A stretch of DNA of 357 bases, taken from the NCBI RefSeq assembly GCF_003334405.1, contig NZ_QOWM01000069.1, one strand, 5' to 3'. The stretch is from Escherichia coli. GTDB lineage: Bacteria > Pseudomonadota > Gammaproteobacteria > Enterobacterales > Enterobacteriaceae. Shown here one piece after another: positions 1 to 26 of the stretch (position 1 is the stretch's first letter; each line of letters starts with the position of its first letter). Under the pieces are notes generated by a model, which saw nothing but the letters and a program-made list of their open reading frames with translations, was not told the DNA's origin and did no database searches. The position numbers and the translations under genes were made by a program.

Positions 1-26
1 GGCCGCAGGCTGTTACCCCTGCGGCC
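1..26. repeat. Perfect 9-bp GC-rich inverted repeat (hairpin) in the ldr 3' region
   Basis: GGCCGCAGG (1-9) and CCTGCGGCC (18-26) are exact reverse complements separated by an 8-nt loop. It lies about 50 nt downstream of the ldr stop on the minus strand. It could be the ldr terminator stem (the U-tract would lie outside the window) or a REP-like palindrome; the function is undetermined. Confidence 0.35.

Follow-up and report, generated by a model that had tools for sequence, protein, structure and literature searches.

A conserved palindrome 3' of an Escherichia coli ldr toxin gene as the probable intrinsic terminator of its mRNA

The subject of this analysis is a 357-nt stretch of Escherichia coli DNA, called the window at its full length. 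The palindrome at its positions 1-26 is very probably the Rho-independent (intrinsic) terminator stem-loop of the ldr toxin mRNA, which is encoded on the minus strand. A stable GC-rich hairpin, an adjoining U-tract, a site 3' of a gene and pairing kept in evolution, the features by which intrinsic terminators are recognized, all occur here together. The setting is a Ldr/Rdl type I toxin-antitoxin locus, composed of a gene for a 35-aa peptide and a cis-encoded RNA, rdl, that overlaps the 5' UTR. The ldr terminator is an ordinary, expected part of this well-known locus. It would set the 3' limit of both the ldr transcription unit and the conserved LDR module, and has little import beyond annotation.

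The LDR unit and its palindrome

The window is a single unit of the E. coli long direct repeat (LDR) family, from the kdsA-chaA array. By megablast it is present in 5426 of 5426 complete E. coli genomes, at a median of 4 places per genome, and all of the matches listed are annotated as 'type I toxin-antitoxin system toxin Ldr family protein'. The chromosome of J53 (K-12) matches the window exactly at units 1 and 2 of its three tandem kdsA-chaA LDR units, an array with a period of 535 bp. Compared with the ldrA, ldrB and ldrC units of MG1655, the window shows 3 to about 6 substitutions, or an indel. The LDR unit also appears on 21 plasmid-collection records (for example CP061267.1, 89812-90168), all predicted to be non-mobilizable; given the chromosome-like size of several, some are probably chromosomes or chromids under a wrong label.

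The ldr toxin CDS, 35 codons plus a stop, lies at 183..76 of the minus strand (ATG at 183..181, TAA at 78..76). Its 35-aa product, MTLAQFAMIFWHDLAAPILAGIITAAIVSWWRNRK, shows 94% identity to MG1655 LdrB and 57% to LdrD. The rdl antitoxin RNA, which ends in a terminator of its own (GCCCCCG..CGGGGGUUUUCU), lies on the plus strand at 231..296, where Rfam model RF01813 (rdlD) matches at full length with 91.4 bits and E = 2e-20, against a gathering score of 50. MG1655 annotation has rdlA, rdlB and rdlC at the equivalent place, and a terminator scan of the window's plus strand calls a terminator-like site for rdl. The remainder of the minus strand, 184..357, is ldr 5' UTR, incomplete in the window; it contains a hairpin that sequesters the Shine-Dalgarno (SD) sequence, AUAGCCGC/GCGGCUAU. 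A TAGTAT -10-like box suggests that ldr transcription starts about 8-10 nt past the window end. Elsewhere in the window Rfam returns the rdlD match, a sub-threshold sok-region match, a chance match to bxd_2 and a weak reverse-strand rdlD match; over positions 1-26, zero families are found at E <= 1.

A preliminary description of this DNA, made from its letters, had reported a perfect 9-bp palindrome with an 8-nt spacer at the ldr 3' end. The palindrome is exact: GGCCGCAGG at positions 1-9 is 100% complementary to CCTGCGGCC at 18-26, across the spacer CTGTTACC. A perfect stem of at least 9 bp with a loop of 3-10 nt, anywhere in the window, arose in 0.76% of 5000 dinucleotide-preserving shuffles of the whole 357 nt. 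Its location is also as described. Along the minus strand the hairpin starts 49 nt past the last base of the Ldr stop codon (about 47-49 nt from stop codon to hairpin overall), with its 5' arm GGCCGCAGG at 26..18, its loop GGUAACAG at 17..10 and its 3' arm CCUGCGGCC at 9..1. Eight of the nine base pairs are G-C, and the loop has 8 nt.

The same description had pointed out that any U-tract would fall outside the window, before its first position. The genomic flank supplies one. The plus strand there reads ACAAAAA(A/T); just before position 1, J53 has ATACAAAAAA in copy A and GACAAAAAT in copies B and C, and the flank runs into the stem as ...GGATACAAAAAA followed by GGCCGCAGG in copy A and as ...AAAGACAAAAAT followed by GGCCGCAGG in copies B and C. 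Because of this plus-strand A-run, the ldr transcript runs from the stem straight into UUUUUUGUAU or AUUUUUGUCU. The U-tract, UUUUUUGU or AUUUUUGU, occupies positions 0 to -7 of the minus strand, just past the window edge. Predicted ldr U-runs in MG1655 lie, all on the minus strand, at about 1269085-1269092, 1269620-1269627, 1270155-1270162 and 3699896-3699903. In J53, copies B and C continue past the stem with an A (AUUUUUGU; L001 2984-3000 and 3519-3535) and copy A with a U (2449-2465); the ldr loci of all other species also have U. An A as first tail residue might slightly weaken termination in these two array copies.

RNA folding gives the ldr-strand hairpin with its tail -21.2 to -21.7 kcal/mol (z about -4.5 to -4.8), within an overall range of -21.2 to -22.4 kcal/mol, and when window positions 1-80 are folded it is the 3'-terminal helix. 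The full-length ldr mRNA was modelled at about 375 nt, with its 5' end placed from the TAGTAT -10-like box. The terminator hairpin appears in both the MFE and the centroid fold of this RNA, with pair probabilities of at least 0.995. The terminator scan calls the hairpins of LDR-A, B, C and D on the ldr strand only. On the minus strand this consensus scan calls each of copies A, B and C with 9 pairs, 8 of them G-C, and a loop of 8; its sole plus-strand calls in that array are the rdl terminators. The region contains 10 terminator-like sites, compared with 2.5 expected from shuffles. The equivalent site in LDR-D, the diverged fourth copy of K-12, is AGGCCGCAGGG-GGGAAA-CUCUGCGGCCU followed by UUUUCGUUCU, with UUUUUCGU as its U-tract.

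Conservation among enteric genera

To guard against circularity, the query used to gather ldr loci from representative genomes was the Ldr peptide and not the hairpin. This search returned 30 loci from Escherichia, Kluyvera, Pseudocitrobacter, Citrobacter, Klebsiella and Salmonella. All 30 have GGCC(G/A)CAG..CTGCGGCC plus TTTTT(T/C)G about 47 nt past the stop codon, over a range in which Ldr peptide identity goes down to 54-63%. Counted over 34 ldr loci, the terminator hairpin is kept in every one. The outer 8 bp of the stem show a mean pairwise identity of 0.96, with 14 of 16 columns invariant, and the U-tract shows 0.86, with 62% of columns invariant. Third codon positions of ldr reach 0.66 (9% of columns invariant). 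The terminator loop, whose length ranges over about 4-9 nt among ldr loci, has a mean identity of 0.62 and the 9 nt beyond the U-tract have 0.35, with no invariant column in either. Conservation of both stem and U-run, with a loop free to vary and homology lost past the U-run, is the pattern expected of a functional intrinsic terminator.

In the 34-sequence alignment, 96.8% of cells in the terminator helix are paired. About 6-7 outer pairs of this ten-pair helix never vary and so provide no covariation evidence. Pair 8 is G-C or G-U, pair 9 is G-C (24 sequences), G-U (7) or A-U (3), and the tenth pair forms in many of the 34; compensatory change is thus confined to the inner one or two pairs. 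RNAalifold, run on an alignment of the full mRNA, predicts the same terminator helix from the alignment alone. Across genera, the outer stem is more invariant in sequence than pairing alone demands. The result also shows strong purifying selection on the terminator among enteric bacteria, as makes sense for a gene with a lethal product that stands head-to-head with neighbours that are essential (kdsA) or large (bcsG).

Three loci deserve separate mention. Besides the 30 loci, the peptide search returned an LDR-D-like ldr locus, near-identical to that of E. coli, in a 'Bacillus sp.' assembly (NZ_JABWSY010000055.1, 503 nt, coverage 0.66, locus L025); the contig is almost certainly contamination. 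In Kluyvera georgiana (L031, about 1283-1667) the ldr 5' UTR and first 11 or so codons are swapped for unrelated sequence; the rest of the unit, from the 3' half of the CDS through the 3' UTR to the terminator, is intact, and this looks like a decayed locus. In Pseudocitrobacter vendiensis (L008, 1591-1593) a premature TAG at the conserved Trp31 codon leaves a 30-aa Ldr; the UTR and terminator 3' of the truncated gene are unchanged.

Termination and alternative explanations

Intrinsic termination proceeds through a hairpin formed in the exit channel and release from an rU:dA hybrid. At this locus, an RNA polymerase moving along the minus strand would pass the ldr stop codon, transcribe about 47 nt of conserved 3' UTR, and next make GGCCGCAGG-GGUAACAG-CCUGCGGCC and then the U-run. 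The 9-bp hairpin, 8 pairs of it G-C, would form in the exit channel; with a weak rU:dA hybrid in the active site the elongation complex would be destabilised, and the ldr transcript would be let go within the U-run. The hairpin would stay on as the 3'-terminal structure of the approximately 375-nt ldr mRNA, where it may hinder 3'-to-5' exonucleases (PNPase, RNase II) and so add to the stability of the message. The ldr mRNA is known to be stable, which fits protection by a 3' hairpin. The ldrD mRNA in particular was reportedly found by Kawano et al. 2002 to be stable and a few hundred nucleotides long. The earlier suggestion that the palindrome terminates or stabilises the 3' end of the ldr mRNA is supported, by the flanks and by the conservation; termination at this hairpin, the exact 3' end and the stabilising role are inferred from sequence, conservation and the established mechanism of intrinsic termination.

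The ldr hairpin shares with canonical E. coli intrinsic terminators a GC-rich 9-bp stem (8 G-C), a short loop, a U-run of 5-6 adjoining the stem, a position shortly past the stop codon, and a loop that varies where stem and U-run are conserved. It differs in that its stem is unusually invariant and the tails of copies B and C begin with A; nothing essential differs.

Published 3'-end data were searched for the same sites. The tables of Term-seq 3' ends in Adams et al. 2021 (PMC7815308) contain an rdlD 3' end at 3700201/2 (+), and zero 3' ends at the ldrD or LDR-A/B/C hairpins on either strand. This absence may reflect low abundance, a detection threshold or multi-mapping; it still lends the terminator no support. 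No ldr entry occurs in the TERMITe supplements. Long and short ldrD transcripts are described, without 3' ends, by Huang et al. 2020 (PMC7373196), and the accessible literature yielded no experimental ldr 3'-end map.

Two other explanations make the palindrome something other than an RNA signal of ldr. One, also raised in the preliminary description, is that a repetitive extragenic palindromic (REP) element lies beside ldr by chance. A GC-rich extragenic palindrome in the gap between convergent genes is indeed in a typical REP location. REPs number in the hundreds of copies per genome and carry the core motif GCC[G/T]GATG[C/A]G[A/G]CG. By contrast, a 34-nt query that contains the hairpin hits 1-10 places per genome, with a median of 2, across 5423 E. 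coli genomes, never above the number of LDR units. A search for the core motif recovers the two REPs in the yaaX-yaaA spacer, which served as control, and gives no hit in the regions of LDR-A/B/C and LDR-D. In local similarity to the control REP spacer the hairpin scores 16, compared with 14.5 +/- 2.6 in shuffles, and in the six genera named above the hairpin is locked in position to the ldr stop codon. The MG1655 feature table has no repeat features at LDR; it has none at the control REP site either, so this missing annotation says nothing. Copy number, motif and similarity, tested with a positive control, rule out a REP element, which we consider extremely improbable.

The other explanation sees in the hairpin mainly the edge at which the LDR repeat unit recombines or duplicates, and not an RNA element. 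The boundary half of that proposal, likewise in the preliminary description, is true only trivially. Similarity among LDR-A, LDR-B/C and LDR-D begins at ACAAAAA, adjoining the hairpin, and across species identity falls to 0.35 right after the U-tract; similarity thus ends about 8-9 nt past the hairpin, where the U-tract ends. The junction half fails. In the tandem array the 535-bp period runs on through the hairpin, and copies B and C have about 70 nt more in common on its far side, so it is not a tandem-duplication junction. Single-copy loci of other genera have the element at an equal distance from the stop codon and with the same conservation pattern of stem, loop and U-tract, which implies selection on the transcript. 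With the B/C sequence continuing past the hairpin and the single-copy loci keeping it, a repeat-unit junction is ruled out, and a role mainly as a boundary is very unlikely. The coincidence is explained if the conserved LDR module ends where the transcript ends.

A further proposal keeps termination and extends it: the same palindrome would also stop transcription on the plus strand, shielding the toxin gene from antisense transcription that arrives from convergent kdsA (at LDR-A) or bcsG (at LDR-D), or from read-through of the previous unit's rdl. An A-run opposite the ldr U-run across the stem is the usual layout of a bidirectional terminator. The plus-strand fold of the palindrome, at about -20 kcal/mol, is nearly equal to that of the ldr strand, though its z-scores are weak (-1.3 to -1.7). 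The palindrome is the only strong hairpin in the 74 nt from the kdsA stop to ldrA, and its LDR-D counterpart lies about 10 nt past the bcsG stop. The plus-strand tail, however, GGUUUCGGGCG in LDR-A/B/C or UGGUCCGGGCG in LDR-D, has only 1-3 consecutive U, the tails GGUUUCGGG / UGGUCCGGG earn no scan call at any copy, and plus-strand 3' ends near 12690xx-12691xx or 36999xx are absent from the Adams et al. tables. By sequence criteria the plus strand therefore does not qualify as a terminator, lacking both the U-tract and listed 3' ends, and we consider a two-way role doubtful. The positions of the hairpin after kdsA and bcsG mean that some effect on convergent transcription is possible.

The 3' UTR and related toxin-antitoxin systems

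The preferred reading, termination of the ldr mRNA, accounts for the hairpin itself; the conserved ldr 3' UTR between stop codon and terminator (27..75, minus strand) raises the question of a larger structure. This UTR is better conserved than the synonymous sites of the toxin gene, and it may form either a local hairpin or pairing with the 5' end or the initiation region. The local option consists of GGGCG..CGCCC with GCCG..UGGC on top; in the alignment its helices are 95% paired, with a CG to UA compensatory change. In the MFE fold of the K-12 mRNA, the 3' UTR instead pairs with the SD (GGCGGCU/GGCUGCC), with the start codon region (GACGCUCG/CGGGCGUC) and with a segment upstream. Over 32 loci these helices are 86-95% paired, compared with 35-50% in slid controls, and show some compensatory change. 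RNAalifold retains, of these long-range contacts, a 6-bp helix that joins GGCGCA at the mRNA 5' end to UGCGCC in the 3' UTR, 7 nt before the terminator; its invariance means that covariation lends it no support. Taken together, the predicted contacts with the SD, start codon and 5' end link window positions 27-67 of the minus strand to 174-210 and 342-346. For the initiation region RNAalifold prefers the local SD-sequestering hairpin (221..214 / 191..184, minus strand), whose inner stem GUUG(C/U)-CAUU-(G/A)CAAC shows clear compensation across genera (CG 19, UA 11). Since RNAalifold picks this local hairpin despite the conserved pairing of the other fold, the anti-SD model from the K-12 MFE should be treated as a hypothesis only. 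In either fold model the terminator hairpin is an independent 3'-terminal module.

A tentative reading, to which we give rather little weight, joins the hairpin and the nearly invariant segment at window positions 27-67 into a 3' control module of the toxin mRNA, in which the segment folds back on the 5' end, or else on the SD together with the start codon. By analogy with the fbi element of hok mRNA, such a module might, at similarly long odds, keep the full-length ldr mRNA translationally inert, and a stable, invariant hairpin could conceivably guard the fold-back lock from 3' exonucleases, a part of the reading that we hold just as loosely. If true, the control module would explain why the outer stem is conserved far above pairing needs. 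A hok-like fold-back lock in the ldr mRNA is plausible from the modelled folds. If the fold-back were confirmed, hok-like control would be extended to the Ldr family, and for this the 3' UTR is worth specialist attention.

Comparison with related loci places the window among known systems. The ldrD/rdlD (LDR-D) locus of E. coli K-12, reportedly established as a type I toxin-antitoxin locus by Kawano et al. 2002, has equal gene order, a long ldr 5' UTR, an antisense rdl, and a 3' UTR with hairpin and U-run. The window is of the LDR-A/B/C type; its peptide is 57% identical to LdrD, and the loop and inner stem pairs differ. Like the mRNAs of the hok family and AapA1, which use fbi/tac fold-back and 5'-3' long-distance interactions, the ldr mRNA has a 3' UTR that is predicted to pair with its 5' end or its SD and start codon. 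The accessible literature yielded no documentation of 3' processing of ldr mRNA. According to reviews, the ldr/rdl pair is probably regulated like hok/sok (PMC4147584, PMC8594479). A sub-threshold match of the Rfam 'sok' (hok/sok region) model to the ldr 5' UTR (window 181-333, minus strand; 29.3 bits against a gathering score of 59) echoes the review statement of a hok/sok-like organisation of ldr/rdl. In the par locus of pAD1, whose Fst peptide belongs to one superfamily with Ldr, a strong hairpin also ends the toxin mRNA (PMC7472228). That terminator is common to the convergent toxin and antitoxin RNAs (RNA I and RNA II), and its loop starts the RNA-RNA interaction. The ldr locus differs from par in that rdl lies across part of the 5' UTR and ends at a separate terminator, so the ldr hairpin has no part in antitoxin pairing.

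Variation was also seen within the 5' UTR. In copy C of J53 (L001 3868-3875) the 5' stem GUUGC-GGGGC has lost 1 nt from its G-run, and one Kluyvera copy has a deletion at the same G-run. The stem with this G-run pairs with the complement of the rdl terminator.
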